Source: an uncultured Flavobacteriales bacterium (lineage in GTDB: Bacteria > Bacteroidota > Bacteroidia > AKYH767-A > 2013-40CM-41-45). Taken from it: a stretch of 54,543 nucleotides of DNA. The DNA lies in assembly GCA_964356415.1 (NCBI GenBank), contig CAYHHK010000009.1:1-54543 (forward strand). The letters are read 5' to 3'. Positions 3,980-23,600 of this stretch are shown here, piece after piece (position 1 is the first letter of the stretch; every line of letters begins with the position of its first letter). The position numbers and the translations under genes were made by a program. The notes beneath the pieces were generated by a model. That model saw only the letters and a program-made list of their open reading frames with translations, had not been told where the DNA came from and searched no databases.

Positions 3980-4261
3980 ATGGATGATAACTCAAAAGAA
4001 ATATTGCTGGAAATCGCTGACCCCAAAGTTGCCAAAAGACAACCCGGGGATAACCGTCGCCAGAAAAGTATCCCGGAGCATATCCTTCGATTAGGGGATG
4101 TTTCCAAAAAGATACCAATCAGGCTGAATTCGAATACAATTGTCAGTGTCACCAGGTTTACCAGTACGACGCTTGCAGAATTGGCGCACAAATATAAGAA
4201 TCGTGTTTATAATCTCAAACCAGAACTCCTCGATGCAAAATTCACAGTTAAGCCTAATTGA
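3980..4261 (+). CDS. Hypothetical protein
   Basis: This ORF lies within track ORF 3905..4261. The first ATG (MDDNSKEILLE) is at 3980. No motif was recognised. Confidence 0.45.
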   Translation: MDDNSKEILLEIADPKVAKRQPGDNRRQKSIPEHILRLGDVSKKIPIRLNSNTIVSVTRFTSTTLAELAHKYKNRVYNLKPELLDAKFTVKPN

Positions 4262-5537
4262 TCTGCGCCAACAGGTTCATTCGGATGCGGCTTTTGCATT
4301 GGAAAAGAATTTTGGGATTGGCACCCTGAATATAGACACCGGTGTTGGAAAGAGTAAGATTGCTATTGACTTTATCAATCGGCATCCTGAAGTTAAACGT
4401 GTTCTGATCACATCCCCCAGGGAAAATCTGAAGGCTAATTGGGCAACAGAATTATCCAAATGGCTTGACGATATCCGGGAAGTGGTGATTGTGGTCGAAA
4501 ATATCCAAACCTGCTATCGGTGGGAAAATGAGAAGTTTGACTTGATCATCATGGATGAAGTTCACATGATTATGACACCGGAATACATTAAGATTCTGGC
4601 GAATAACACGTTTACTTACATCATCGGTTTAACTGCCACCCTGGATATTAAGGGTAAACTTGAAAAACGCCTGCTTTACTCTGCGCATTGTCCTATTATA
4701 TATAGGTATAATACCGCTGAAGAAGATGGTGTAGTCAATAAGGTGCGTGTGGTGATCATTGAACATACGCTGGATGATAATTTCAAGGTGCTTACCGGCG
4801 GCAAAACGAAGAAATGGTTAGCCGGAGAAGCAAAAACCTATGCCTACATCTCTGAAATGTACGACAGTGCCTTTCAGGGTATGCGCCAGGAAATGCAGCT
4901 TGCCGAATACATCGCCAGTGTAACCAGCGATGACCTTACCCCGGAATTGCAGAATCTTCGGAACCTTTCTGACAATGTTTATGAGATGGCAAATCAGTGG
5001 GGATACAAGGCGCTGGGCAATGTTGCACAAAAAGCTGCAGCAATGAAGTATATGCAGGCAATGATGATTCGCAAAAACTTCTTGCTTAATCTTTCTTCCA
5101 CGCAGGCAATTGCAACAAAGATTTGCCAACGCCTTTTGAAGAACCCGGCAAATAAAATTCTGGTTTTTAGTGAACTCACTGCGCAGGCTGATAAAATCTC
5201 GGCACACACAGTTCACAGTAAAAACCATCCACGAGTAAACACGAAGAACATCCAGGATTTTAATGATGGAGATATTCGCCAACTCGGATCCTGCTACTCA
5301 CTCACTCTCGGATTAAATCTCTCTGCTGCCAATATTGGGATTTTCGAAAGTTTTATGAGTAGTGACACCAAATCTATGCAACGCATAGGCAGACTACACC
5401 GATTACCAAACAGCGATGAAGCTATTTTATATGTCATCAAAGTCATGAATACCCAATCGGAATCGTGGTTCAGCCAATTGTTAAGCACGTATAGCGTCGA
5501 TAAAACTATTGATTCACTCTTAATTCTTAACGCATGA
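4233..5537 (+). CDS. Superfamily 2 (DEAD/DEAH-like) helicase
   Basis: Motifs seen are Walker A DTGVGKS, motif II IIMDEVH, motif III GLTATL and motif VI QRIGRLHR. The likely start is the ATG at 4233 (MQNSQLS) rather than the 4140 start given in the ORF track. Confidence 0.85.
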   Translation: MQNSQLSLIDLRQQVHSDAAFALEKNFGIGTLNIDTGVGKSKIAIDFINRHPEVKRVLITSPRENLKANWATELSKWLDDIREVVIVVENIQTCYRWENEKFDLIIMDEVHMIMTPEYIKILANNTFTYIIGLTATLDIKGKLEKRLLYSAHCPIIYRYNTAEEDGVVNKVRVVIIEHTLDDNFKVLTGGKTKKWLAGEAKTYAYISEMYDSAFQGMRQEMQLAEYIASVTSDDLTPELQNLRNLSDNVYEMANQWGYKALGNVAQKAAAMKYMQAMMIRKNFLLNLSSTQAIATKICQRLLKNPANKILVFSELTAQADKISAHTVHSKNHPRVNTKNIQDFNDGDIRQLGSCYSLTLGLNLSAANIGIFESFMSSDTKSMQRIGRLHRLPNSDEAILYVIKVMNTQSESWFSQLLSTYSVDKTIDSLLILNA

Positions 5538-5761: not shown

Positions 5762-6377
5762 AACACAGATCACCATCATACCTTTTCAAAAGGTAGTTGC
5801 AGCACGCTTAACCGTCACTGATTTTGTACTTCTTAACCTTATTTATGAGAAAAATTATGCCCTGCTGAAAGCGTATGTTGAATATGCCTATGCAGATACC
5901 CAGAGTGCCATTACTGATCTTCAGCAATTGGAACGCGATGGGTGGTGTAAAATCACCGGCAACAGCCCTCTGGAAACTGTACACATTCGCCAACCCTTCA
6001 TCGAATTGATCACTGAGCCTCTGGAAACAGTAAGCTGGATTGAAGCATATCGAAGATTGTTTGGAAAAGCACGTACTGGTTCCATGGGAGATTCCAAGGG
6101 TGTTACGCAGAAGATGCGCAAGTTCATGGCATCAAACCCGCAATATTCGCCGGATGAGATCATGACTGCAGCGCGTCTCTACATTCAGAAATGCAGCATC
6201 GACAATTACAAGTACATGCAACAGGCGGATTATTTTATCTCGAAGGAAGCTTCGGATAATACCACCAAAAGTAATTTGCTTTCGTATTTGGAACAACTCG
6301 ATGTCCATATTTCTGAAGCGGTAAATCCCGGCGATACAGTCACAAGCATTAACTCTTCCGGCGATGGGGCTTTTTGA
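5748..6377 (+). CDS. Hypothetical protein (209 aa)
   Basis: It overlaps both neighbouring genes within the replication block. No motif was recognised. Confidence 0.6.
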   Translation: MESNKTQITIIPFQKVVAARLTVTDFVLLNLIYEKNYALLKAYVEYAYADTQSAITDLQQLERDGWCKITGNSPLETVHIRQPFIELITEPLETVSWIEAYRRLFGKARTGSMGDSKGVTQKMRKFMASNPQYSPDEIMTAARLYIQKCSIDNYKYMQQADYFISKEASDNTTKSNLLSYLEQLDVHISEAVNPGDTVTSINSSGDGAF

Positions 6378-7539
6378 TGAAGTCATAGCCTCGGTGGACA
6401 GGGGCAGATCAGGACTGAATGAAGGACTTTCCCATGGATTACCCAGGCTGGTTCCGTATATCCCCAACATTCAGATGGGGAGTATCAATTTGATTGCGGG
6501 AATGCCGGGTAGCGGGAAGAGTGCGCTGGCCACATCATCTTTTGTCAATGCGCCTTATGAAGATTTCTTGGTAAATAAGTCCGAGACTTACAAGCTGAAG
6601 ATCATCATCTGGTCAATTGAGATTAACAAGGTGATGTTGTTCACCAAACTGATTTGCAGATATTTATTCTACAAGTACCGGATACTGGTGGACATTAACT
6701 ATGTTCTTTCCCGGGGTGAAAACCGAATCTCGCAGGAGATTTACGACAAGGTTATCGAGGCTCACGATTATTTTGAAGCCTTTGAAGATGTTGTCACGGT
6801 TCTTGGCCCGGATAATCCTACGGGAATCCGTAACACACTGCTAAATTACCTGCGTGAAAATGGGCGTGAAGAATACATTGAAGCCCACGTAGCGCGTAAA
6901 GATGCATTTGGTAATGTGATTCTTGTTGATGGAGAGCCGGTAACTGACGTCAGAATGGTTCACGATAAATTTACTCCTACTCATCCCAATCACTACGTCA
7001 TAGCAATGGTTGACCATGTGGGTATTCTCAAACGTGAACGAGGGTTCAATAAAAAGCAATCCATTGACAAGCTTACCGAATACATGGTAGAAATGGCCAA
7101 CATTCACCGGATCATCCCGGTTCTGGTTCAACAGGTGAACCGTAACAATGAAAACTGGGATCGCCAGAAAGCCGGTGGCACCGACATTCAACTCGGAGAC
7201 TTAAAGGAATCCGGGGATACTGTCGATGCTGCTCATAATGTGATTGCGCTCAACTATCCGCAACGCTTTAATTTACACGAATATCGTGGTTATAATCTGG
7301 ATCGTCTTGCTGACAGAGCCAGGTTTTTATCGGTACTGAAAAACCGCGATGGTAATGCCAACATTCAACTTGGTGCAAAATTTCTCGGTGAAATTGGCGC
7401 ATTTACTGAACTGCCAGATGCTTCGCACATGACAGAACAGGTGTATGCACAACTCGCCTCATATCAAAAATACATTGACCTAAACCAAACCATAAATGAT
7501 AACATTACCAACAGTACCAATAGCGCCAACCAGTTGTAA
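6364..7539 (+). CDS. DnaB-like replicative helicase (RecA-type C-terminal domain)
   Basis: Motifs seen are Walker A GMPGSGKSALA, Walker B VIAMVDHVG, and the blocks ESGDTVDAAHNVIAL and LKNRDGNAN, which are typical of DnaB/gp4-type helicases. Confidence 0.85.
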   Translation: MGLFDEVIASVDRGRSGLNEGLSHGLPRLVPYIPNIQMGSINLIAGMPGSGKSALATSSFVNAPYEDFLVNKSETYKLKIIIWSIEINKVMLFTKLICRYLFYKYRILVDINYVLSRGENRISQEIYDKVIEAHDYFEAFEDVVTVLGPDNPTGIRNTLLNYLRENGREEYIEAHVARKDAFGNVILVDGEPVTDVRMVHDKFTPTHPNHYVIAMVDHVGILKRERGFNKKQSIDKLTEYMVEMANIHRIIPVLVQQVNRNNENWDRQKAGGTDIQLGDLKESGDTVDAAHNVIALNYPQRFNLHEYRGYNLDRLADRARFLSVLKNRDGNANIQLGAKFLGEIGAFTELPDASHMTEQVYAQLASYQKYIDLNQTINDNITNSTNSANQL

Positions 7540-8014
7540 CCCAGCCAGGGTGGTGCTTTATTCTCCACCAAAAATGGGGAAAACAACTTTTGCTTCGCAG
7601 CTTGAGAACAATTTGATTCTTGACCTTGAGGATGGTAGCAACTTCGTTACCGCCCTGAAAGTTAAAATCACTTCTCTCGCTGAACTTGATGATACATGCA
7701 GAGCAATTCTCGCCGCCGGTAAACCATATAAGTATGGAACCGTTGATACCATTTCTCGTCTCGAGTTGTGGTGTGAAGGCGAAGCTACGCAGGATTATAT
7801 GAACAGCGGCATTGGCAAAAGTTTCAACAGAGTTAAATCAACAGGAGCGATTCTACCCAGGCACGAGTGGGAATCAGTACTGACTTTGCCAAATGGTGCC
7901 GGCTACTTTTGGCTTCGTAAATCGTTCAAAATGCGGATAGCACGCCTCCAAACTTGTTTCGAACATCTTATCCTCATCGGGCACATGAAGGATAAGACCA
8001 TTGAAAAACAGGGT
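7496..8014 (+). CDS. Sak4/AAA_24-like RecA-family ATPase, exon 1
   Basis: VVLYSPPKMGKTTFA (P-loop), LILDLEDG, GTVDTISRLE and HLILIGHMKDK match the AAA_24 pattern. Past 8014 the frame continues into intron-derived sequence and reaches a stop at 8054-8056. Confidence 0.75.
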
Positions 8015-9001
8015 GAACTTTTTGCCCTTACCTATCTAATTGCTGGAATATCCTAAAGACAATAAACTACAACGTAATTTGAAAAGATCAGCGTGAATGT
8101 TAAAAATTATTGTATGAAACAATGGACAATCAGCAGCCAAGACCCTAAAACGAAAGTAATGGGTAAGGTTCAGAGACTATCTCGTAAGAGAGTACACAAT
8201 TTAAAACTGTGGAAATGGTAGGAGTAACAATAAAAACAGTAAAAATATACACACTTGAGCATCCTATAACACAGGAAATTCGGTATGTAGGTAAAACAAC
8301 ACAGACTTTAAATCGTAGGTGTAACGGGCATATTAGTAAAAGATCAAATGCACACGTTACTTGCTGGGTTAAAAGTTTAAAAAAGCAAAATTTGTTTCCG
8401 AAAATACAATTACTTGATGAAGTAGATTATCAAATCTGGGCTGAAACTGAAAAATATTGGATTTCACAGTTACGCACTTGGGGATTTAATTTATGTAACC
8501 ATAGTGATGGCGGAGAAAGTGGAAGAGAAGGTGTTTCTTTGACTCAAGCACAGAAAGATTATTTATCTGTATTGAATACAGGACGCACCATGTCTGAACA
8601 ATCAAAACTAATTATTGCTCAAAAAGTTAGTGCTGCATGGCGACGTAAGCAACTGGCACAAGTGTTTAAATACCAACAACCAAAAATTGCAAAAGAACAG
8701 TATGTTTTTACACAAGACCATAAAACCAATATTAAAAACAGATTAGTAGGCAGGAAATTACCGCAATCAGTAATTGATAAAATGGTAGAAACTCGCAAAA
8801 AATCTATTCAACAGTGTGATAATAACGGATCTATTATAAAATCTTGGGATTCTGCAAAAACAGCATCTGAAGTTTTAAACATTAATAGTTCGACAATACG
8901 ACATTGTTTACGTGGCAGTAAGAAAACTGCCGGAGGTTTTAAATGGTCTTTTTGTTACTAAGATATAGTCCAGCCCCTTTAGAAATTTTGGGGAACAACT
9001 G
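8015..9001 (+). mobile_element. Group I intron (td-like) interrupting the Sak4-like ATPase gene, carrying a GIY-YIG endonuclease ORF
   Basis: - P1: exon AGGGT (8010-8014) pairs with GCCCT (8024-8028), with a U.G pair at the splice site.
- P10: TTTTT (8019-8023) pairs with exon 2 AAAGA (9002-9006).
- P7: GACTAT (8175-8180) pairs with ATAGTC (8965-8970), as in the T4 td intron.
- P9: hairpin CCCC 8974-8977 / GGGG 8990-8993.
- The terminal G is g9001.
- The junction is in frame and gives ...IEKQG|KEVNAVELDL. Confidence 0.7.
8215..8961 (+). CDS. GIY-YIG homing endonuclease (I-TevI-like), intron-encoded
   Basis: KIYTLEHPITQEIRYVGKTTQTLNRRCNGH is the GIY-YIG core, followed by EKYWISQLRTWGFNLCNHSDGG. 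The C-terminal NUMOD1-like HTH is IIKSWDSAKTASEVLNINSSTIRHCLRGSKKTAGGFKWSF. The ATG is at 8215; the ORF track starts at a GTG at 8209. Confidence 0.85.
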   Translation: MVGVTIKTVKIYTLEHPITQEIRYVGKTTQTLNRRCNGHISKRSNAHVTCWVKSLKKQNLFPKIQLLDEVDYQIWAETEKYWISQLRTWGFNLCNHSDGGESGREGVSLTQAQKDYLSVLNTGRTMSEQSKLIIAQKVSAAWRRKQLAQVFKYQQPKIAKEQYVFTQDHKTNIKNRLVGRKLPQSVIDKMVETRKKSIQQCDNNGSIIKSWDSAKTASEVLNINSSTIRHCLRGSKKTAGGFKWSFCY

Positions 9002-9214
9002 AAAGAAGTGAACGCTGTCGAGTTGGACTTAACCGGCAGACTAAAATCTATCACCTGCGCTGATGCTGATGCTGTCGGATACCTTTACCGGGACAGTGAA
9101 AGTAAACTGCGCATCAATTTTGCCGCCTCTGACAATGTACTTTGCGGAAGCAGGCCGGCACATTTAGCGGGTGCTGATGTCGAGGCCTTATGGTCAAACA
9201 TCTTCATAGATTAA
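9002..9214 (+). CDS. Sak4/AAA_24-like ATPase, exon 2
   Basis: KEVNAVELDLTGRLKSITCADADAVGYLYRDSESKLRINF matches the C-terminal AAA_24 pattern (l.gk....  .D.vg.l). It is in frame with exon 1 once 8015-9001 is removed. The spliced product would be 243 aa. Confidence 0.65.
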   Translation, partial: KEVNAVELDLTGRLKSITCADADAVGYLYRDSESKLRINFAASDNVLCGSRPAHLAGADVEALWSNIFID

Positions 9215-9711: not shown

Positions 9712-10530
9712 ATGGCAAATGTAAAAGGTAATGTCGGCGAAGCCACAGTAGTAGGCGACAGGAAATTGTTTACCGGAATTGTACCGGTTCAGGTGATGAA
9801 ATTTAATCCTACCAAGGCGGAATTAGTTGCTGACGGGATTGATTTTCAGAACGAGATCGTGTACACCACGGATAAACAACTCGAAGGTGGCCTCGTTGTA
9901 AAGGCTACCCGTTTGGATATCTGGGTTGCAAACCCGAATTACGGGGTAAGCACCAAGATTTCCATCTTCCTGGAAGACAGGGCACGCACAAATAAGGATA
10001 ACACCAAGATGCAGTGGATCAATTCATTTGGTCAATGTACCTGGGGTTCCCTCACTGCCCCTCCTTCAGATCCTACGGTTCTGAAATGGTTCAGCTTGAA
10101 AGATGTTCGTCCTGCCTTCGTTGGCGAGGAAGAACTGATCAAGTTCCTGTCCAAATGGGCCAACGCTTCCCCGAAAGAGGAGTTGTTCCTTGACGCCTTA
10201 CCAGCGTTGATTCGCACCGGTAATGTATCGGAGTTGCGCAGTTTACTCCCGGTGTTCGGTGAGAAAAACCGTGTTCGCGTATTGCTTACCGTTACCCCAC
10301 AGGAAAAAGACGGCGTGACCAAGTATTACCAGAACGTGTTTCCACGCCATTTTGAGCGTTGGAACATCACCAGCAACACCAGTTGGGATAAGCAGTTTGC
10401 CAACCCGCTGGGAGAACCAAAAGGTGTGTGGACACTGGAACTGAAGGAATTCAAGGCTCCGGAAACACACCCTGATGCTGATCCTGCACAGACTGCAATG
10501 GCAGTGAACACTGAAGATGCACCCTGGTAA
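9712..10530 (+). CDS. Candidate single-stranded DNA-binding protein
   Basis: It lies between the Sak4-like ATPase and the primase. The C-terminus is acidic and aromatic (AVNTEDAPW), like the tails of T7 gp2.5 and bacterial SSBs. No direct fold evidence is available. Confidence 0.35.
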   Translation: MANVKGNVGEATVVGDRKLFTGIVPVQVMKFNPTKAELVADGIDFQNEIVYTTDKQLEGGLVVKATRLDIWVANPNYGVSTKISIFLEDRARTNKDNTKMQWINSFGQCTWGSLTAPPSDPTVLKWFSLKDVRPAFVGEEELIKFLSKWANASPKEELFLDALPALIRTGNVSELRSLLPVFGEKNRVRVLLTVTPQEKDGVTKYYQNVFPRHFERWNITSNTSWDKQFANPLGEPKGVWTLELKEFKAPETHPDADPAQTAMAVNTEDAPW

Positions 10531-10544
10531 ATAAACAGTAGCCC

Positions 10545-11549
10545 ATGATTACAGGTCATTTAGGCGTTTCAAAAGAAGATGTTCTTACGCGGGTAAGTGA
10601 GCGAGAGTTATTCTCTGCTTACTGCCCCGGGTTTGAACGCGTTGGTGAGTTTTTCCCCGGTAATTTAAGATCGTCGGATAGTTTAGCCAGTGCACATGTT
10701 GAAATGCTTAGTGGCAAACTTCGTTACAAGGATTTCGGCGATTCGAATAACGGGAGCATGGATATTTGGGCTTATGTAGGTGCAAGATACGGATTGAATT
10801 TCCTGGGAGTAGTTGATAAAATCTCCCAGGATTTCAATCTGAATCATAGTACTGTACCTTACCCGTCTTTACCGACACATTTTACCGGTGAACAGTTGCC
10901 AAAAAAGCAACGAATGATTAAACGTCTGCAAATCAAGCAGCGTCAGTGGCAGCAATGCGACAAAGAATATTGGAGTGACAGGTATTTCATCACCCGCAAT
11001 GAACTTGAATTGTTTAACGTGGCACCAATATCGGATTTCTGGATCGATTACAGGCATATTCGTGCAGAAAAACAATCATACTGCTATAATTACTACTACT
11101 TTGAAAACTACCTGTTAAGAAAAATCTATCAACCCCTGTCGGAAACATACAAATGGTACTCGAATATCAACAGTACTGTTGTTCAGGGAATTGATAACAT
11201 TCCAAAAACACATCCTTTGCTGATCATCACCAAATCAATGAAGGATTTAATCATCCTGCACAAACTTGGCTATCCGGCTATTGCCCCGAACAACGAAATG
11301 GGGTGGATACCGGATGCTGTTTGGGCAAAGTTTCTTCAGCGTTACCCAAAAATGGTAATACTGTTTGATACTGATCCCGCCGGCATTGCCAGTGCGCAGA
11401 AATTTTCACAAATCTACAATCTTCCTTACATCAATATCCCGGCGGCACCCGGGGTAAAAGATATAAGTGATTTTGTTTATCAATCCCGCAGCCTTGGTGA
11501 GACTGCACAATTAATGGAAGGATTATTGCGCGATGTTACAATCCGATGA
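10545..11549 (+). CDS. Toprim-domain DNA primase
   Basis: LLIITKSMKDLIILHKLGYPAIAP...MVILFDTDPAGIASAQKF matches the Toprim pattern (E/K..D...L...G........DxDxAG). Confidence 0.75.
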   Translation: MITGHLGVSKEDVLTRVSERELFSAYCPGFERVGEFFPGNLRSSDSLASAHVEMLSGKLRYKDFGDSNNGSMDIWAYVGARYGLNFLGVVDKISQDFNLNHSTVPYPSLPTHFTGEQLPKKQRMIKRLQIKQRQWQQCDKEYWSDRYFITRNELELFNVAPISDFWIDYRHIRAEKQSYCYNYYYFENYLLRKIYQPLSETYKWYSNINSTVVQGIDNIPKTHPLLIITKSMKDLIILHKLGYPAIAPNNEMGWIPDAVWAKFLQRYPKMVILFDTDPAGIASAQKFSQIYNLPYINIPAAPGVKDISDFVYQSRSLGETAQLMEGLLRDVTIR

Positions 11550-11719: not shown

Positions 11720-12223
11720 ATGAGAACAATCATAATTGTATCAGCGAAAACAGGCGGCAGGTCAACAATCAACAGTGCAGCCTTGAATTGGTCTGAATTA
11801 CAGGCAGATTTAACCGCCGCAGGCATCGAGTTTGCCGGCATGACAGTCTTGGAAAAGGTTAATTACAGTTCACTGGAGCATGGCGAAGCCCGTATTCCTG
11901 AAGGAGAATTCACGCTTTATCTGATGCCAAAGAAAATCAAGGGTGGCAGCTTGATTTCCCTCGAAACCCTGGATGCTATGGTATCCAGCCTGGAGAGTAT
12001 CGTGGAAGATGCCCGTGGCCTCATCTCCGATGGTGATGGGGGTACTGATGAGAATGACGAACCATTGCCTTTCGACGAAGAAGAAGTCTTAACCGACGCC
12101 GGCTTCGATTTCAAGGCACGCGTTCAGATCATCAATGCCCAGTTGGAAGAGTTGCTGATCAACCCTACCAATGACCCTGAAGTTGCAGAAGCACTTGCAA
12201 TTCAGAAAATGATCAACGGATAA
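11720..12223 (+). CDS. Ubiquitin-like (beta-grasp) protein with an internal Gly-Gly at residues 75-76 and a 91-aa acidic C-terminal extension
   Basis: Residues 1-76 are MRTIIIVSAKTGGRSTINSAALNWSELQADLTAAGIEFAGMTVLEKVNYSSLEHGEARIPEGEFTLYLMPKKIKGG. This segment shows a ubiquitin-like strand/helix periodicity and ends in GG at exactly residue 76 (nt 11942-11947). It lies in the same gene block as the JAB and E1-like genes. Confidence 0.55.
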   Translation: MRTIIIVSAKTGGRSTINSAALNWSELQADLTAAGIEFAGMTVLEKVNYSSLEHGEARIPEGEFTLYLMPKKIKGGSLISLETLDAMVSSLESIVEDARGLISDGDGGTDENDEPLPFDEEEVLTDAGFDFKARVQIINAQLEELLINPTNDPEVAEALAIQKMING

Positions 12224-12279: not shown

Positions 12280-12302
12280 ACTCACCTTAAATTTAATTTG
12301 TG

Positions 12303-14429
12303 ATGGAAGCAATGACCCCTGAAGACAGGGCTTTTATTGAAAGCTGGAGAGCAGGGGAGAGTTTACCACCAACCCCCACTGTTTGGCAAGATCCGGTAAC
12401 GCATAGCGAGGCCACTGAACCCGACGTAATTTTACTTGAAAATAATATTGATCCTGTTTCCTTAATCGATGCAGTGCGTCCTTTACAGGATGCTTATAAT
12501 GAAATGTCTTTTCGTACTGCTGTTTCAGCAGCGCGATTGGGTAGAGAATCAGAACGTATAGTAGTGGGAAGCGGTGGTGTAGAGTCTCCTATTGATACTC
12601 GCGAAAGACAGATACAGGAAGATGCTGCTGAATTAGCACGAATTCGTGGTAACATGCTTGACGGTCAAAGTACCCCGCCACCAGGATCAGTTTATCGCCC
12701 ACCGGCAGCACAAGTTGCTGATCCAGTTCAACATCCTTCAAGATTAGCTGCAAGGCGTGCTGAACAATTAGCAAGGAATCGTGAGCGAATTGACATGTCT
12801 CGAGAATTTCAGGAAAGACCGCCACTTGGCCCGACACCCAGTAGGCCAGGAATGAGTGGAGAACCTTTTACAGTAGAAATTCGCGCAAGACAATCAGGAT
12901 TAACAGATCGTTTAGCGCATTCTGGGCATATTGACAATGTTCCAGCGGACACCACATGGCAACCCGCTGTTTTATTTCAAACCCGGGATGACGCCAATGA
13001 TTTCTTTGATGCTTTATCGGCAGTTGTACAAGGTCAAGTGATTGATTTGACTCATGCTACTTTAATTTCGCGACTCACAGAGTACCTAAATTCCCCGGAA
13101 AATGTAACTGTCAGGCGTTTTGCATTGACTGCTGCAGATCGCGCAATGTTGGAAAGAGAAGGTGTTCGCCAATTATGGGATGCAGCAAGAGTTGCAAGAT
13201 TATCCCGGGAACGTACAATTCGCAATACTCCTCCTGTACCGCAAATTGACGACAGATCAATTGTAGTTCATCCAAATGGCAGGATGCAAATGATGTCTGC
13301 TGCTGAACTTGAAGTATTTTTATCACGCCCTGCACTGGCACCTGATGGGTTGGATTTTGTTTACCTTAACGGTATCACTAAAGAGCAACTTACACGCGAT
13401 GAACAGATGGTGGTTGAAGCACTGGGAGAAGTTTATCCTGGTAGGAGTGAGTATAGAAAATCGGGAACATCGCGACAGATTTTATTTCACATTCCTTCTG
13501 TAACTATTACTGATGGTAACGATGATCATGAATTGCTTTTACGCGATCTCTATACTGAAATTCACCTGGAGATGGATACGACAACCGGTAAACTGCTGAA
13601 TTTCAACAATTGTTTTCTGAAGCGCGCAACTTTCTCCTATGCCGAAGCTGTTGCTGATTATTCTTATTCACACGCTGCGAATGGTTCTTTATTATATAGC
13701 GAGGATTTTGGTAGCTTGTGTTTGGGAAATTCCATTATGTCTGCAAAGGCAGTAGAATTAAACAGACGCGTTACCAAAGATAATGTGGAAGCCTTTCTGA
13801 TTTTATTTTACTCTTACTATAGTTGGGAAAGTCTCGAAGGTGGGCCATATAAGCACATGACTGATGTTCAGGCCAGTGTACTGCTTAATGGTCACGCAAC
13901 ACTTAATAATGTTGAAATTCTCAACACCACCAAATCTATAATAAATTCTGAATCAATGATTCCGGGGCTTACTACAGACAAAATTGGTGATATATCGACA
14001 CTTTACATTGACAGTACACATCCCGGATTCCATCAATTACTTATAGACAGCGGCATACCCACCTGTTTTTATGAAGGTTCTACAGGTTCGTATAAAATAC
14101 TGTCAAGAGTCGGTAATGGTAATCCACAAACTTTTCCGGAAGGAAGCACTCTTCTGCGGTTTCGTAACCGAAATATTCGTTTGCATGTTGATTCGTCAGA
14201 TGTAGCAGACACATCTGTTTTAAAGACAGTTGTATATCCTGAACATGCTGATATGGTTGCCTCCAAACTTACACAAATTTTTAATAATCTGCTTTATAAA
14301 CATGTCCCTAATTCGGGATTTGATGCGCAAACAGTTATCAATCAGATTCCTCCAATTCAATTGCCTGTAGGAATTCCGGTACTCAATGTTGCAGAAACAG
14401 TTGAACAGTTCGAACTTCAATTTTCATAA
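12303..14429 (+). CDS. Large hypothetical protein with a candidate E2 (UBC)-like region
   Basis: The ORF encodes about 709 aa. See the domain feature at 13478-13860. It sits directly upstream of the JAB and E1-like genes. Confidence 0.75.
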   Translation: MEAMTPEDRAFIESWRAGESLPPTPTVWQDPVTHSEATEPDVILLENNIDPVSLIDAVRPLQDAYNEMSFRTAVSAARLGRESERIVVGSGGVESPIDTRERQIQEDAAELARIRGNMLDGQSTPPPGSVYRPPAAQVADPVQHPSRLAARRAEQLARNRERIDMSREFQERPPLGPTPSRPGMSGEPFTVEIRARQSGLTDRLAHSGHIDNVPADTTWQPAVLFQTRDDANDFFDALSAVVQGQVIDLTHATLISRLTEYLNSPENVTVRRFALTAADRAMLEREGVRQLWDAARVARLSRERTIRNTPPVPQIDDRSIVVHPNGRMQMMSAAELEVFLSRPALAPDGLDFVYLNGITKEQLTRDEQMVVEALGEVYPGRSEYRKSGTSRQILFHIPSVTITDGNDDHELLLRDLYTEIHLEMDTTTGKLLNFNNCFLKRATFSYAEAVADYSYSHAANGSLLYSEDFGSLCLGNSIMSAKAVELNRRVTKDNVEAFLILFYSYYSWESLEGGPYKHMTDVQASVLLNGHATLNNVEILNTTKSIINSESMIPGLTTDKIGDISTLYIDSTHPGFHQLLIDSGIPTCFYEGSTGSYKILSRVGNGNPQTFPEGSTLLRFRNRNIRLHVDSSDVADTSVLKTVVYPEHADMVASKLTQIFNNLLYKHVPNSGFDAQTVINQIPPIQLPVGIPVLNVAETVEQFELQFS
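13478..13860 (+). other. Candidate E2/UBC-like catalytic region (tentative)
   Basis: A beta-meander-like stretch ILFHIPSVTITDG...LYTEIHLEMDTTTGKLLNF is followed by YSHAANGSLLYSEDFGSLCLGNS. That second block compares with the E2 pattern HPN-x(6-10)-G-x-I-C-L; the Cys codon is at 13719-13721. Next comes VEAFLILFYSYYSWESLEGGPY, comparable to the E2 helix ending in a Pro-containing loop. Confidence 0.3.
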
Positions 14430-14444
14430 CCTTAAACCAAATTT

Positions 14445-15671
14445 ATGTCACATACAAAGCGTTTTTTAGAAGACCACCCGAATGCCAAATCATTTTCAGA
14501 TGTTGGCCACTGGCCCACAGGGTTATTTGATCAGGGGTCTTCACCAGAAGAACCAAGAACATACCCACGGCGCTTATCGGAAGTGCAGATTCCCGGAGTA
14601 CCGGAACTGGTTATATCCCATAAACTACAGGCACAAATCGATTATCTTCATTCCAATGTAGGCACAATGGAATGGTCTGGTATTCTTTTGTACAAAATAT
14701 TCTCCGGCACCCTGGCTGATCCTGCCAACATGAAAATTGTTGCAAAACAACTGTTTCTGATGAACATTGGTAGCAGCACTTACACAGAATTCTTTACCGG
14801 CGTAGGTGTTCTGAAGATGTACGACATGATTCCTGATGCAGAATATTGCAGAATGGGATTGATTCACTCACATCACAACATGGGTGCATTTTTCAGCGGT
14901 ACTGACATCCAGGAACTGCACGACAATTCACCATATCACGCGTTTTATCTTTCGCTTATCGTTGATTTTCAGGGTACTTACAAAGCCCGGATTGCAATCG
15001 AAGCTGAAGCTGCTGAAACAATTAAAATTAAAGATGTGGATTCACAACCTATCCAGGTTGCTCTTGAAACAAAATCAATGGCTTCCGGTAAAGTTCTCGG
15101 AATGATTGATATCAAAGTCATTAATCCGCCTTTGATTGATAATTTGTTCAAGGATCATTACCATAGTGTTGCGAATTTACTCAAGAAACCTGTTGCACCA
15201 ACACGGGTTTTATGGGGTGAGCAGACTATGTTACCTGCTCCGATTATTCCTGTTGCGCCGATAGTTGTGGGAAGTATTCCAATCGGTGTAAGCAAGCGCA
15301 TGGTCAACAAGATGACAGCGCTGTTGTTATCTAAAGGCGATTACCCTACATTACCGGAAGCATTCGCAAAGCATTCCCAGGCCATTGATCGCACTTCAGC
15401 ATCACAGGTTTGTCACGCTTTAAATGATAACTGGAGTTTCGATTTCATAATGCGTTGTTTAACCGATGTCTTTGGACTTCCTTGGGTTGAAAAATTCATA
15501 GATGGTGGCGCATCAACGCCTGATGGTATTGAAATGAATATGATGGTAACTGAACTGCTTCAACAATGTTCGGAGAAAGTTGCCAATCTTCTCAAACCCA
15601 CCAGCGGTAGTGTGCTTTTATCCAAAATGATTAGCGAATTAGACCTCGCTGAATTAGTAACACTCTCATGA
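14445..15671 (+). CDS. JAB/MPN (JAMM) metallopeptidase domain protein
   Basis: The sequence has a perfect JAMM signature, HSHHNMGAFFSGTD (H-x-H-x7-S-x-x-D, nt 14865-14906). The upstream Glu is present in MEWSGILLY. The C-terminal roughly 200 aa are unassigned. Confidence 0.85.
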   Translation: MSHTKRFLEDHPNAKSFSDVGHWPTGLFDQGSSPEEPRTYPRRLSEVQIPGVPELVISHKLQAQIDYLHSNVGTMEWSGILLYKIFSGTLADPANMKIVAKQLFLMNIGSSTYTEFFTGVGVLKMYDMIPDAEYCRMGLIHSHHNMGAFFSGTDIQELHDNSPYHAFYLSLIVDFQGTYKARIAIEAEAAETIKIKDVDSQPIQVALETKSMASGKVLGMIDIKVINPPLIDNLFKDHYHSVANLLKKPVAPTRVLWGEQTMLPAPIIPVAPIVVGSIPIGVSKRMVNKMTALLLSKGDYPTLPEAFAKHSQAIDRTSASQVCHALNDNWSFDFIMRCLTDVFGLPWVEKFIDGGASTPDGIEMNMMVTELLQQCSEKVANLLKPTSGSVLLSKMISELDLAELVTLS

Positions 15672-16396
15672 GCGTAGGTGTTGATGAAGCCCGATTGAGG
15701 TTTAGTAACCTTGATTGGGCACAACACGCCTCGGAGCATGTTGTTACTCTTGGTGGTGCAGGTGGAATCGGATCCTGGTTTGCACTACCCCTGGCACGGA
15801 TTGGTTATCAGGTTAGAATCTTTGATTTTGACAGAATTGATACAACCAATCTGGGTGGCCAGCTTTTTCGCACCACGGATGTCGGCAAATTTAAAGTCGA
15901 TGCCGTGAAAACCAACGTGATGATGTTCACCAGTGCCGGAACTGTGGTTGCTCTTAACCAGCGCATCAATTCCCGACTTGATACCGGTAACATCGTAGCC
16001 AGTTGTTTCGACAACATGGAAGCACGTAAAACTGTATACGAGTCCTGGAAAACGGGCTGGGCAATTCCCTGGTTAAATTTACCGGAAGCACAGCGTAAAG
16101 CAACATTCACACCACTGTTAATAGATGGACGTCTCATGGCAGAACAACTTCAGGTATTCTTTGTAACACCTGAACGCTTGTCGGAATATGAACCATATTT
16201 ATTTGCTGACAGTGATGTTGAAGATATGATCTGTACCAACAAAGCTACTTCGCACTTCGCGATGGGTATTGCTTATCAGATGACCCGGGGATTGAACAAC
16301 CATGTTCATAATCAACATTTGGGACACGATGACCGCGCAGTACCATTTCTGATTGAAGACGAAGGTTTCATGTTTACTCAAACTATTACACGATGA
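15668..16396 (+). CDS. ThiF/MoeB/E1-like adenylyltransferase (ubiquitin-activating-like)
   Basis: VVTLGGAGGIGSWFALPLARIGYQVRIFDFDRIDTTNLGGQLF matches the GxGGxG Rossmann motif plus D.D.v..sNL.RQ. Also present are GKFKVDA, FDNMEARK (DN..tR) and MICTNKATSHF (compare the E1 P-x-C-T motif). It has an ATGA overlap with the JAB gene. Confidence 0.85.
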   Translation: MSVGVDEARLRFSNLDWAQHASEHVVTLGGAGGIGSWFALPLARIGYQVRIFDFDRIDTTNLGGQLFRTTDVGKFKVDAVKTNVMMFTSAGTVVALNQRINSRLDTGNIVASCFDNMEARKTVYESWKTGWAIPWLNLPEAQRKATFTPLLIDGRLMAEQLQVFFVTPERLSEYEPYLFADSDVEDMICTNKATSHFAMGIAYQMTRGLNNHVHNQHLGHDDRAVPFLIEDEGFMFTQTITR

Positions 16397-17301
16397 TTTC
16401 CAGTAGTGTCACACACATAAATAATACACCAGGCAAAGTTGTTACAGTGCAAATGAATCCTACGCTTGATGTTATGTATGCTGGTGAATTATTTCATCCG
16501 AAATGGGGTTCAAACACTATGATGCTGGGGCCAGTACAGGGGCTTATTGTTGATCTTGTTCGTGAATTGCGTTATACTGAGCAGCAAAAAATTCTTATTC
16601 TGGATTTATGCGAAAACATGTCAGTAGTCAACAGATGTGCAGATTATATGACACGTTCAGCAGATGCGGCGAAACGATTCTTAAAGGAATACATTAAGCA
16701 AACGCTGGTATCCTGGATGAAGAATCCAAGTAGTAATTCGTTATCATTTTTGACATCAAATACTAACGAGATTCCAATTTTGACCAATCTAACCATACTT
16801 GAAAATAATCGCAAATTACGCCCATGCCTTCAACATGTACAGCTTCGATTACCAGGTATGTCGGCACAGCACGTAATGGTAAATTATTACACCGCATTTA
16901 CAATTAAAACAACTTTAGTCCCAATGGGTGTTTCGCGTGGTATTCAGGCTTGTTTCATGCTGATGGTCAAAAAAGAGGCTGTTAATCGTGTAAGACTGCG
17001 GCTTTTCTTTGAACAGGCGCAGGATTCAGATGATTTTGTATTGTATGTTGATAAGTTTTTCTTCGAAGAACGGCAAACACAATCCTTGCACGCGTTTTAC
17101 ACTTCAGTTCAACGGGAATGTTTTGATAAAGAAGTTCCTATTGCAGTTGTTGAAAATCTTTACGATCACTTATTTATCAATCCCCTTCAACCAGCGATAG
17201 AATTTCCTTCTGTTGCTGAAGTATCCAGGCACCAGGACACGGTGCTTACAAATCTCAAACGGCAACTACGCTTATCCACTAATGCACACTTAATTGTATA
17301 G
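16393..17301 (+). CDS. Hypothetical protein (302 aa), translationally coupled to the E1-like gene
   Basis: It has an ATGA start/stop overlap with the E1-like gene. No motif was recognised. Confidence 0.7.
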   Translation: MISSSVTHINNTPGKVVTVQMNPTLDVMYAGELFHPKWGSNTMMLGPVQGLIVDLVRELRYTEQQKILILDLCENMSVVNRCADYMTRSADAAKRFLKEYIKQTLVSWMKNPSSNSLSFLTSNTNEIPILTNLTILENNRKLRPCLQHVQLRLPGMSAQHVMVNYYTAFTIKTTLVPMGVSRGIQACFMLMVKKEAVNRVRLRLFFEQAQDSDDFVLYVDKFFFEERQTQSLHAFYTSVQRECFDKEVPIAVVENLYDHLFINPLQPAIEFPSVAEVSRHQDTVLTNLKRQLRLSTNAHLIV

Positions 17302-20634: not shown

Positions 20635-23600
20635 TTAGTTGTTCGATGGTTCTGGTTCAGGATCATCCTTGAGCATATCATCCAACCATTCATACTGACC
20701 CTGGCGATACTGTTTCGACGTAACGGTTTTTGCACGATTCCACATCTTCAATCCCGGGATCAGTGGCCTGGATTTAACCCAAACTCTGTTCTCTCCTTTG
20801 AAGGGGCCACTGTGCATTTTTGTATCACCACCCCAGGCTTTTGTAATAGCGTCAGCTAATGTAGCGATATCATTTACAATTGCAACGGCGGGTATAAAAT
20901 TTTTGTTCAATGACTGCAATTCTTGCGGGTTCGAGTAGAAGAAGACGTCAGTTTGAAGCCTGCTGTAAAGATTCAACATGAAATTCATCGACATAAACAT
21001 CGACGTTTTCTTTTTCTTTTCATCGTCTGGTAACATTTTCAATCCACGCAGTAACAGTACAGCCATGATGTTAATGGCAATCAATCCCATCATTTCGGTC
21101 ATATTCTTTCGCAAGTTGGCAGAATCTACATCCGAGTAACCTGCTTCGTTAAAGTGCGTTTTGCCTGTAAATACACGCAATGCTACTTGTTTCAGCATAA
21201 AGAACGATTCCTGCAACACATTCATGTCAGGTGAAACATCTTCTTTTGCCATCTTTTTTGATACAATTTTAGCAGCATATCCTGCGCCTAATCCTACGAT
21301 GCCTCCAATAACTGTCCCAACTCCCGGCAACATCGCGGTTCCTGCCAGCCCCAACGTCACTGCCAGTGTCCCGGGAGTGTAGCTGCGGTATCTTCCTTTG
21401 CGGGTTAATCCGGTGGTGTGGTAATCCTGCGTTCCACCAAATCGAGTATAGAATCCCATCAATGCCCAAGTACGAAACTGCAGGAATAGTTTACCAAGTA
21501 AATAACGACTTACCCGAGTCCGGGAATTTAATCGGTCATAGTTACCGTGACAAATCTGAATTAATTCATCAACAGCAGTGCCGGCATCCAGTAAAGTTTT
21601 ATTGGTACTATGGTTTTCAATGTCGGCAATGTTCTTTTCTGTGCGGTACTCTTCTTTTAAATGACCGTCTTTGCCCATGGCATCCCACAAACTGATTTCT
21701 CCGCCGTGGCCATCTTCCACTTTCGTGTTGCGAAGGATACAGATCATCAATGGCGCCTGGTTTAAATACTCAGTAGATGACTGCAATTTATACGGTGAAA
21801 TTTTATCTACCACTGGCATGAGTTTTTCTTTGAAACTACTCATTGTACCATCGCCTTTAGTTTTGTCGCTGATTTCGTATTGGGTTTCTTTCAAAATATC
21901 CATACGTTGCATCAAATTTCTGATCTTGATTGCATCATGGCTAAACTGATTTACACCGCCCATGGTTTTCCAGAGAATAGAATAAGCATAGGACATATCC
22001 CGGGTGGTGAAAAGTCTTCCATCAGACGCTTCAGTAAAATTTGAAATCAATCCAAATCCAAAGTTTGAGGCTCCTGATGTGAAATTATACCCCATATTCA
22101 GGAGTTGTACAAATCCAAGTAATCCGGTAACTGCAGCTTGCCCGGAGACACCATATTTCAGTTCATCCAATTGATTGGTAAGTACTTCGAAATTCTTTGC
22201 ATACTCTTCAGCGGTAATCTTTCCTTCACTGCGAGCCTGTTCATTGTCCTCGATGATCTGCTCCAATTCTTCAGCTTTCTTTCTTTCATCCTTGCTGGCC
22301 AGCTTTGTGGATTTAGCAACGGCTTTTTCAAAGGATGCCTTTTCTACTTTATATCCGTAGTAAATTTCCATCCAACTATCAGCACTTGCCAAAACGTGTG
22401 CAATTTTCGAAGACTTTTCGATAGCTTTCCTGTTACCCTGATTTCCTTTGGCTTCATCATCATTGGGATGCGTTGCGTACAGTAAATTTCTGCCAATACG
22501 CATGATCATATCAGTCTCCGCCTTGTGCTTGTAAATAACAGCCATGGATGTAAACCCCTTGATTACTTTGCCAACATCAAAAGACTTGCGCATTGCAATA
22601 TCATTGATGATATCCCTGCGCCAATTCTTTAATGTCTCAGTATCCGGATTTTCTTTTTCGTTGTCAATTCGATACTGAATTGTTTTGTACTCCAGGTAAG
22701 CTTTGATTTCCGGATTGTGATTAGCAATGAACTGGGTTTGCAATTTAAAATCCGCCTTTCCAGTGTAAACATCTTTGTGCTGGTAGCCTTCCGGATCCTT
22801 GTTGTCTTCTTTCATCCCGGCACGTACATTTTCCATCATCGAGGAAAACCCTCCGGAAATTCCACCGTCAATAAACTGCTCTGTCAAGTCTTTGTACATG
22901 AAAGGTAGTGTATTGGCGTGCAGTAAATTTGCTTTTTCCGCAGGCAATACTGATTTTAAATCATACATCAAGTCCATGATGTGGTCATACAACGCGCTTT
23001 GGTGAACATTCTGCCGCATTGCTTTGTATTTCTCGTCATAGAAACCGGTTTCCTTGCCATCAACAGATTTCCTGGCCACGGTGATTGAGTATTCTTTCGT
23101 AGGTACGATAAAAGAATCGTTAGTGGCCGCTGTTTGGGCACCATAAAAGATTCGAGCCTCGATGTACGGAGAGTTTTCATTCAGCCATGTATTGTAGGCC
23201 AGTGCAGATTCTGCTACATTATTATATTTCGCATCGAAGAAAACCTTCATGGCGCCAACACCCTCACGGAATCTTTCGATCTGCTCTTCAGCCTGTTCCA
23301 TGACCTTGGCATATTCCTCATCTCCAAGCGTGTTACGAAGCAAATCGTGATGTGCCTGGATTTCTTCCTGGGAAAACGAGATAGGATTCCCGTCTTTATC
23401 CAGTTCAGAATACAACGACGAATCCATAAACAACTTACGATAATCGAGCATCAGGGAGATTTTCTTAATCTTCTTGAAATACTCCTTATTAATTTTAGCC
23501 TTTTGTGACCGTCGTGTTGCGGGATTGGCATACGTTCTTTCCGCATGATCCAGTTTACTTTCACGTTCATTTTCCCATTCATTGAGCAAGTCATGGTAAT

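Follow-up and report, generated by a model that had tools for sequence, protein, structure and literature searches.

The locus raises the question of whether a phage gene encoding a protein with a ubiquitin-length N-terminal segment, which ends in Gly-Gly and is followed by a long acidic tail, is the precursor of a ubiquitin-like (Ubl) modifier. The window analysed is the whole stretch of 54,543 nucleotides of contig CAYHHK010000009.1 (GenBank assembly GCA_964356415.1). The ORF at 11720-12223 on the + strand starts with ATG and encodes 167 aa, with Gly-Gly at residues 75-76 preceded by K72-I-K74, and the remaining 91 residues contain 22 Asp/Glu against 4 Lys/Arg, with a pI of 4.05. A word-indexed homology search with the single protein found only itself, and blastn of the surrounding genes against phage records found nothing. 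However, an exhaustive phmmer search found 373 homologous cluster representatives (50% identity) at E<=1e-3, nearly all of which match only residues 1 to about 77, and the feature is far beyond chance. No Pfam or PHROG annotation was found for this family, and PHROG 15560 is annotated as unknown function.

The domain contained between residues 1 and 76 (11720-11947, +) is predicted to adopt a beta-grasp fold, in agreement with the original prediction. Single-sequence AlphaFold2 gave a poor model (mean pLDDT 54) and was replaced by a run with an alignment; a 12-sequence N-domain alignment worked, and the model built on a 149-sequence alignment shows pLDDT 95-98 over residues 1-70, with strands 2-8, 14-19, 41-45 and 64-70 and a helix at 24-33, in beta-beta-alpha-beta-beta order. 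Confidence falls below 50 at residues 76-78. The best Foldseek matches of domain length in the PDB are ubiquitin, NEDD8, SUMO and ISG15 (probability 1.0, rmsd 2.6-3.3 A over 75-78 columns), with a TM of 0.60-0.67 normalised to the target for ubiquitin/NEDD8/SUMO. Sequence identity to ubiquitin in the structural alignment is only 17-20%.

The C-terminal motif of the domain, K72-I-K74-G75-G76 (11933-11947, +), contains the predicted processing and activation site, after G76 and before S77. Among 149 representatives, G76 is kept in 147, K74 in 135 and K72 in 122, and position 75 is Ser in 123, Ala in 19 and Gly in five. The family-wide feature is therefore K-x-K-[S/A/G]-G, and the Gly-Gly emphasised in the original prediction is a minority variant. 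The length of exactly 76 residues, which had been likened to that of ubiquitin, is also partly coincidental, since some homologues carry insertions and in gp79 of ΦcrAss001 the equivalent Gly is near residue 88. The register appears to match the R72-L-R74-G75-G76 of ubiquitin. Of 247 family members, 64 are stand-alone proteins with 1-11 residues after the Gly, and none ends at the Gly. Their stops are genuine TAA codons inside long contigs. Stop-codon readthrough or recoding between the stand-alone Ubl and the following ORF was rejected, since both stops are TAA and, in the related phage locus L003, the next ORF is in another frame. Although the window protein and FpV4 gp53 both end in Gly (ING and MFG, respectively), the C-terminus of the whole protein was rejected as the attachment site because only nine of 149 members end in Gly.

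The tail, named T (residues 77-167; 11948-12220, +), shows predicted helices at 81-103, 131-146 and 153-166 and no Pfam match. Tails are hypervariable, and phmmer and jackhmmer found no hit between the window tail and other tails. In some related phages T is a separate gene, located between the Ubl gene and the next gene of the cassette in loci L002, L003, L010/11, L025/26 and L028/29. An HMM built from fused short tails hits the separate ORFs of L028/L029 at E about 1e-4, but the window's own tail scores only E 0.086. At the C-terminal end of T there is a conserved amphipathic helix motif (12176-12220, +; PEVAEALAIQKMING; family consensus L-x-x-[EQ]-A-x-x-[IL]-x-x-x-[LFM]), found in the last 22 residues of 40% of tails, against 8% of shuffled tails (maximum 14%) and 1-7% elsewhere in the tails. 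Leu at position -3 is present in 49 of 57, although it was not part of the search pattern, but the window's copy is an approximate match with Glu at this position. T is thus not just a disposable pro-peptide. About 40% of tails also show a conserved post-Gly module of the MSYKELR...KNYT type, with weak SAP/HeH similarity in a few members. These conserved features, and the fused tail of 20 residues or more kept by about three quarters of the 247 family members, leave room for an uncleaved adaptor, in which the beta-grasp is a non-conjugated interaction domain, as in UBL-UBA or UBX proteins, docking on the E1, JAMM or X proteins of the cassette while the C-terminal helix of T binds another partner. 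This is unlikely, since stand-alone Ubls with short caps and separately encoded tails show that the two halves function apart, and the near-invariance of a Gly exactly at the domain end, together with an obligatory E1, is hard to explain without a free C-terminus. Equally improbable is that the Ubl is mainly a cis-acting folding or solubility tag, or a timing device, for T, much as ubiquitin is for eukaryotic ribosomal-protein fusions, with a peptidase that only liberates T and an E1 that acts on a different substrate. The fusion architecture with a flexible junction and the conserved, possibly DNA-binding, features of T in many homologues agree with this, but stand-alone Ubl genes persist alongside a separately translated T, with nothing to chaperone in cis, the E1 co-occurs strictly with the Ubl, and no other small protein ending in Gly is conserved in the cassette.

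The Ubl gene is the first of a cassette placed after the primase, in the replication module of crAss-like and FpV-like Bacteroidota phages. The order Ubl, X, JAMM peptidase and E1 is found in every locus with enough downstream DNA, including FpV4 gp53-gp50 and ΦcrAss001 gp79-gp76, and the ORF directly after the E1, Y, completes the same cassette in ΦcrAss001 (gp79-gp75), which has a cultured model in Bacteroides intestinalis. The cassette is conserved across crAss-like gut and marine phages, and no relative turned up in a pattern scan of 185,579 bacterial and archaeal genomes. Protein X (12300-14429, +; 708-709 aa, starting at GTG 12300 or ATG 12303) has a conserved C-terminal core with an invariant His (13671-13673) and an invariant Cys (13719-13721), within the pattern Y..SH..(about 15)..C.G...ES..G.PY across 19 phages. 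X is a candidate E2-like transfer enzyme, although this is unproven: it shows no Pfam, PDB or PADLOC match, and hhalign against UBE2D2 gives a probability of 5%. The JAMM/JAB metallopeptidase (14445-15671, +; 408 aa) is two genes downstream of the Ubl gene, not adjacent to it. It shows a catalytic Glu76 (14670-14672) and H141-x-H143-x7-S151-x-x-D154 (14865-14906); H141, H143, S151 and D154 are invariant in 19 of 19 orthologues and E76 is kept in 18 of 19. Its assignment rests on this motif and a Pfam Prok-JAB hit below the curated cut-off (E 2e-4); 17 of 19 orthologues hit Prok-JAB weakly, and the family profile finds nothing among PDB sequences. The E1-like adenylating enzyme (15668-16396, +) is minimal (242 aa), with a Pfam ThiF match at 6.7e-19, a nucleotide loop G29-S36 (15752-15775) and an invariant Cys189 (16232-16234) that aligns with E. 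coli ThiF Cys184. R11, G30/G32, D53/D55, K76 and D115-N-M-x-x-R120 are also invariant, and the family profile hits UBA5, MccB, ThiF, Uba1, MoeB and Cap2 in the PDB, but no E2-recruiting domain is recognisable. Protein Y (16393-17301, +; 302 aa), of unknown function, has no invariant residues and no Pfam match. Jackhmmer from the window's Y found nothing, but all-against-all comparison showed one family across loci, in which the window's Y links to the L002 Y at E 1.2e-4.

Taken together, the ORF most likely encodes the precursor of a phage Ubl modifier, an 8.2-kDa predicted beta-grasp domain fused to the 9.8-kDa acidic helical protein T, and this reading is somewhat more likely correct than not. 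In the proposed mechanism, the JAMM peptidase cuts after Gly76 to release T and a Ubl with a free Gly carboxylate, or trims 1-11 residues in phages with a stand-alone Ubl, and may also reverse the modification; the ThiF/UBA5-like E1 adenylates Gly76 and takes it onto Cys189; and the Ubl is then passed to a target, possibly through the invariant Cys of X. Cleavage after Gly76, as in the original prediction, is inferred from comparative evidence, namely the end of homology and of model confidence at Gly76, the capped stand-alone forms, the separate T genes and the accompanying peptidase and E1. Adenylation or thioester formation, the E2-like role of X and protein conjugation are also inferred, and no experimental evidence exists for cleavage, adenylation or conjugation in this family. 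Alternatively, the trimmed Ubl might be converted to a C-terminal thiocarboxylate, as in ThiS/MoaD, CysO-Mec+ and QbsE-QbsD-QbsC, and donate sulfur for a phage-directed thio-modification of a nucleotide, tRNA, DNA or cofactor, with X as the acceptor enzyme. The small ThiF/MoeB size of the E1, its Cys189, its ThiF and MoeB hits and the location of the cassette among nucleic-acid metabolism genes agree with this, and JAMM trimming of residues after the C-terminal Gly-Gly appears to be established for QbsD/QbsE and Mec+/CysO (discussed in PMC1779556). However, this alternative is unlikely. No rhodanese, cysteine desulfurase, ThiG/MoaE-like or thiolation enzyme was found by Pfam in the cassette or in the ten other + strand ORFs scanned, with ORFs 4140-5537 and 6364-7539 compared only with PHROGs, and X and Y match no sulfur-transfer family. 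In addition, the E1 lacks the two CxxC zinc motifs of ThiF, the structural neighbours are ubiquitin-type modifiers, and the basic K72/K74 register resembles the E1-recognition tail of ubiquitin.

Ubl conjugation in prokaryotes has so far been described as a bacterial defence against phages (CBASS Cap2/Cap3, Bil, Bub) or as sulfur transfer, and in phages the only described case is a Ubl plus JAB pair in tail assembly. No mention of a ubiquitin-like, ThiF or JAB cassette was found in full-text literature searches or in targeted reads of the ΦcrAss001 genome paper, the persistence and transcriptome paper, the virion atlas and the 2021 crAss-like survey. It is possible, although this remains tentative, that crAss-like phages, including ΦcrAss001, and FpV-like Flavobacterium phages run a complete Ubl protein-conjugation pathway of their own during the replication phase, with a capped precursor, a JAMM maturase and deconjugase, a minimal thioester-forming E1 and X as a new Cys-dependent transfer enzyme unrelated in sequence to known E2s, directed by T and Y to host or phage proteins, possibly DNA-bound ones. 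This would be the first full Ubl conjugation system encoded by a virus of bacteria, and possibly a counterpart or counter-measure to the bacterial Bil, Bub and CBASS systems.

The bacterial Type I Bub pathway (BubAB/BubCD/BubE) also makes its Ubl, of an architecturally variable family, as an N-terminal fusion precursor, and the JAB domain of BubCD has been shown experimentally to cleave BubAB immediately after its conserved Gly, exposing the C-terminus for an E1 (PMC11601596). In Bub, however, the fusion partner is the E2, the JAB is fused to an E1 that lacks a catalytic Cys, the chemistry runs through Ser oxyesters, a DUF6527 serine protease is present and the operons are bacterial and defence-associated, whereas here the partner is the small T, JAB and E1 are separate genes, the E1 keeps an invariant Cys, no DUF6527 hit was found in the cassette and the system is phage-encoded. 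The bacterial BilABCD (ISG15-like) defence operons show the same listed component order, Ubl, (E2, a place taken here by X), JAB and E1, without an E3, but BilD is a multi-domain E1 with inactive and active adenylation domains and a Cys domain, and BilB is a recognisable E2, while X ranges from 320 to 709 aa with no detectable E2 similarity and the E1 of the cassette has a single adenylation domain. No member of the cassette matched a Bil or other Ubl-system model in PADLOC, apart from the E1 hits to Cap2. Eukaryotic ubiquitin precursors probably offer the same arrangement of a 76-residue beta-grasp ending in basic-x-basic-G-G and fused to an unrelated C-terminal protein, with both halves functional after cleavage, which here is only inferred, but position 75 is usually Ser in the family, the predicted processing enzyme is a JAMM metallopeptidase and the E1 is minimal. 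The archaeal SAMP/UbaA/HvJAMM1 system seems to combine a single beta-grasp modifier, a minimal E1 and a JAMM isopeptidase and to conjugate without a canonical E2 or E3, which would mean that X need not be an E2 for conjugation to happen. SAMPs, however, are cellular, appear to double as sulfur carriers and to be translated ending in Gly-Gly or with short extensions, and have no T, X or Y counterpart. Finally, the lambda/T1 tail assembly protein I (TAPI) is a phage-encoded Ubl domain with a conserved terminal Gly, joined by a linker to a small C-terminal domain, with a nearby JAB peptidase (TAPK, JAB + NlpC/P60) predicted to release the Ubl (PMC1779556). TAPI is located in the tail-assembly module and has no E1, whereas the cassette described here follows the primase among the replication genes, includes an E1 and has no NlpC/P60 domain.

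The ORF at 11720-12223 on the + strand is real: it starts with ATG and encodes 167 aa, residues 72-76 read K-I-K-G-G, and the remaining 91 residues, here called T, contain 22 Asp/Glu against 4 Lys/Arg, with a pI of 4.05. A primase gene is located upstream. Downstream, on the same strand, are a 709-aa ORF, here called X (12300-14429), a 408-aa ORF with a weak Prok-JAB hit (14445-15671), a 242-aa ThiF-family E1 (15668-16396, Pfam 6.7e-19) and a 302-aa ORF, here called Y (16393-17301). The JAB gene, described as neighbouring in the original prediction, is therefore two genes away from the ORF and not adjacent to it.

The beta-grasp arrangement that had been proposed from the hydrophobic periodicity was examined by structure prediction. 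A single-sequence AlphaFold2 run was weak (mean pLDDT 54), but already showed a beta-beta-alpha-beta...beta order. With a 149-sequence family alignment, the model shows pLDDT 95-98 for residues 1-70, with strands 2-8, 14-19, 41-45 and 64-70 and a helix 24-33. Confidence falls below 50 exactly at residues 76-78, and the tail is predicted as helical (81-103, 131-146 and 153-166). Foldseek against the PDB returned ubiquitin chains as the best matches of domain length, followed by NEDD8, SUMO and ISG15, with probability 1.0, TM 0.60-0.67 on the target, rmsd 2.6-3.3 A over 75-78 columns and 17-20% identity. Two longer chains containing a ubiquitin-like domain also rank near the top, with poor rmsd. 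Against predicted viral structures, the best hits are uncharacterised proteins of crAss-like phages (cr111_1, cr126_1 and cr106_1) and of Flavobacterium phage Fpv3, followed by giant-virus ubiquitins. No Pfam Ubl family was among those listed for the family members, and the PHROG matched by the protein (15560) has no assigned function.

A word-indexed search found only the protein itself, whereas an exhaustive phmmer search of 1.84 billion cluster representatives found 373 homologues at E<=1e-3, almost all of which match only residues 1 to about 77; a chance ORF is excluded. In 149 of these homologues, position 70 is P in 127, position 72 is K in 122, position 74 is K in 135, position 75 is S in 123, A in 19 and G in 5, and position 76 is G in 147 and A in two, while the positions from 77 onward (S in the window) are unconserved. 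The family signature is therefore K-x-K-[S/A/G]-G, and the Gly-Gly pointed out in the original prediction is a minority variant. The register K72/K74/G75/G76 appears to parallel the R72-L-R74-G-G of ubiquitin. Some homologues carry insertions, such as ΦcrAss001 gp79, so that the exact length of 76 residues, which had been noted as identical to that of ubiquitin, is partly coincidental.

Tail lengths fall into two groups. Among the 247 family members in which the Gly could be located, 64 show only 1-11 residues after it, 35 of them exactly one, and 182 show 20 or more; none ends at the Gly. Two stand-alone genes on long contigs were inspected, and both end in K-S-G-K followed by a TAA stop. In those and other loci, a separate small ORF is located between the Ubl gene and X. 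An HMM built only from fused short tails found the separately encoded ORFs of two phage loci, L028 and L029, at E about 1e-4 among 656 ORFs, and these are the best hits outside the fused proteins, although the window's own tail scores only E 0.086. The two halves are thus joined in some phages and separate in others and, because the Gly is never the translated C-terminus, exposing it requires proteolysis in every member. The possibility that the protein works uncleaved as an adaptor is unlikely, since it is hard to reconcile with stand-alone capped Ubls, separately encoded tails and an obligatory E1. A role of the Ubl as a release tag for T is equally unlikely, since it does not explain why stand-alone Ubl genes persist.

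The tail is a module and not filler. Tails share a C-terminal amphipathic motif, L-x-x-[EQ]-A-x-x-[IL]-x-x-x-[LFM], which occurs in the last 22 residues of 40% of tails, against 8% of shuffled tails, and Leu at -3 is present in 49 of 57 although it was not part of the search pattern. The window protein ends in …PEVAEALAIQKMING, an approximate match. About 40% of tails, including that of FpV4 gp53, begin right after the Gly with a conserved MS[YF]KELR…HFN.GKNYT.KST..LR.LL module; it was noted at 6977-7846 of phage locus L001 and in many family members (P0003, P0009, P0031, P0060 and others). A few of these show weak SAP/HeH similarity (best E 5.4e-6), and a few tails are Lys/Ala-rich and histone-H1-like, which hints that the tail protein may bind DNA in those phages. 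The window's tail belongs to the short acidic subfamily. Both the window protein and FpV4 gp53 end in Gly, but this is not a family trait, since only nine of 149 members do.

FpV4 shows the same arrangement as the window: a primase gene, a uracil-DNA glycosylase gene, gp53 (Ubl-T), gp52 (X), gp51 (JAB) and gp50, the E1, annotated as 'thiamine biosynthesis protein'. Of 29 IMG/VR loci found with the N-domain alignment, every one with enough downstream DNA shows Ubl, X, JAB and E1 in that order, usually after the primase, and the ORF after the E1 (Y) also forms one family. A tblastn search with a typical N-domain hit 64 phage records, comprising 29 Flavobacterium psychrophilum phages, 26 Bacteroides crAss-like isolates including ΦcrAss001, and several 'uncultured phage cr…' genomes. 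In ΦcrAss001, the cassette contains gp79 (Ubl-T), gp78 (X), gp77 ('metalloprotease domain'), gp76 ('ThiF') and gp75, directly after the primase gp80. Profile searches confirmed the first four (E from 3e-14 to 6e-75), but the Y profile did not detect gp75. Replication and nucleotide-metabolism genes of ΦcrAss001 were described as the middle transcription class, switched on 10-30 min after infection (PMC8375218), and from its position the cassette is inferred to belong to this class. A pattern scan of one genome for each of 185,579 bacterial and archaeal species found no relative.

In the JAB protein, E76, H141-x-H143, S151 and D154 form the complete E…HxH-x7-S-x-x-D JAMM motif. H141, H143, S151 and D154 are invariant across 19 phages, and E76 is kept in 18 of 19. 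Seventeen of 19 orthologues hit Prok-JAB weakly, and the family profile finds nothing in the PDB by sequence. In the E1, R11, the GxGxxG loop, D53/D55, K76, D115-N-M-x-x-R120 and C189 are invariant. Its profile hits UBA5 (1e-11), MccB, PaaA, ThiF, Uba1, MoeB and Cap2, and PADLOC matches the Cap2 'E1-E2' models (8e-10). In an alignment with E. coli ThiF, C189 aligns with ThiF Cys184, while the two CxxC zinc motifs of ThiF are absent. The E1 of ΦcrAss001 (gp76, 10251-11402 of locus L035) is 383 aa and shows an N-terminal extension of about 150 residues, which the 222-248-aa E1s of the window and the other loci lack. The ThiF-like E1, together with the JAMM trimming that seems established in the QbsE/QbsD and CysO/Mec+ systems (PMC1779556), would fit a sulfur carrier. 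However, no sulfur donor or acceptor enzyme was found in the cassette or among the other + strand ORFs scanned, and the fold neighbours are ubiquitin-type, so that this alternative is considered unlikely. The conserved core of X reads …Y.HSH…(about 15)…FCLG……WESLEGGPY, with invariant His and Cys, and the His-before-Cys order resembles the HPN…Cys arrangement of E2s, although X shows no detectable similarity to any E2. The window's X also shows an N-terminal extension of about 330 residues (12300-13286, + strand), rich in Pro, Arg and Glu, that is absent from the 320-460-aa X proteins of the related phages. Y has no invariant residues and no Pfam match.

Most likely, the gene encodes a Ubl precursor whose Gly76 would be adenylated by the E1 and probably taken onto Cys189, and the Ubl would then be transferred, perhaps through the Cys of X, to unknown targets. 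The JAMM enzyme may also reverse the modification, and T, and perhaps Y, may act as an adaptor, a substrate or an independent factor. Cleavage, activation and conjugation are inferred, whereas the evidence obtained concerns the predicted fold, the domain boundary, the conservation, the fusion/fission of T, the synteny and the catalytic motifs; the whole scheme is considered more likely than not. The closest experimentally shown precedent is Type I Bub, where the JAB domain of BubCD cleaves the Ubl-E2 fusion BubAB immediately after its conserved Gly (PMC11601596). The listed component order of Bil operons, Ubl, E2, JAB and E1, is the same if X, whose E2-like role is only inferred, corresponds to the E2. 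By predicted fold, terminal Gly and E1 association, the domain appears to be a conjugatable-type Ubl, although it was not assigned to any curated Ubl sequence family. It is not Type I Bub, since it shows neither an E2 fusion nor a JAB-E1 fusion, no DUF6527 was found in the cassette and the E1 keeps its Cys. It is not Bil, since the E1 is single-domain and the system is phage-encoded, and it is not lambda TAPI, since it is located in the replication module and has an E1. Its inferred working is most like the logic of Bub and of eukaryotic precursors. Prokaryotic Ubl/E1/JAB systems are already known, but no description of this cassette was found in the literature searched, including the ΦcrAss001 and crAss-like survey papers, although not all journals were covered and prior mention elsewhere cannot be excluded. 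Database names for family members are 'hypothetical protein' or misleading. The interest of the cassette lies in the phage group involved and in its being directly testable.

On the + strand of the window, the Sak4-like AAA_24 ATPase gene (7496-9214) is split: the exon-1 ORF (7496-8056) is followed by a group I intron match (Rfam Intron_gpI at 8031-8222, 42.5 bits, E 4.5e-9, below the gathering score of 50) and a GIY-YIG/NUMOD homing-endonuclease ORF (8209-8961), and the ORF at 9008-9214 then matches residues 188-246 of the uninterrupted homologue in phage locus L002 (54% identity, E 2e-22). In the region 223-2472, a LAGLIDADG endonuclease ORF (223-1188) directly precedes an ORF covering only the C-terminal part of a family A DNA polymerase (1276-1980, Pfam DNA_pol_A positions 162-379 of 381), and an HNH-AP2 endonuclease ORF follows (1990-2472), so the polymerase gene may also be interrupted by a mobile element. 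The minus strand shows very large ORFs between 20635 and 49327: one of 5181 aa (25062-40607), one of 1473 aa (20635-25056), which had no PHROG match, and one of 1364 aa (45233-49327), which matches PHROG 28748, 'virion structural protein', at 1e-138.
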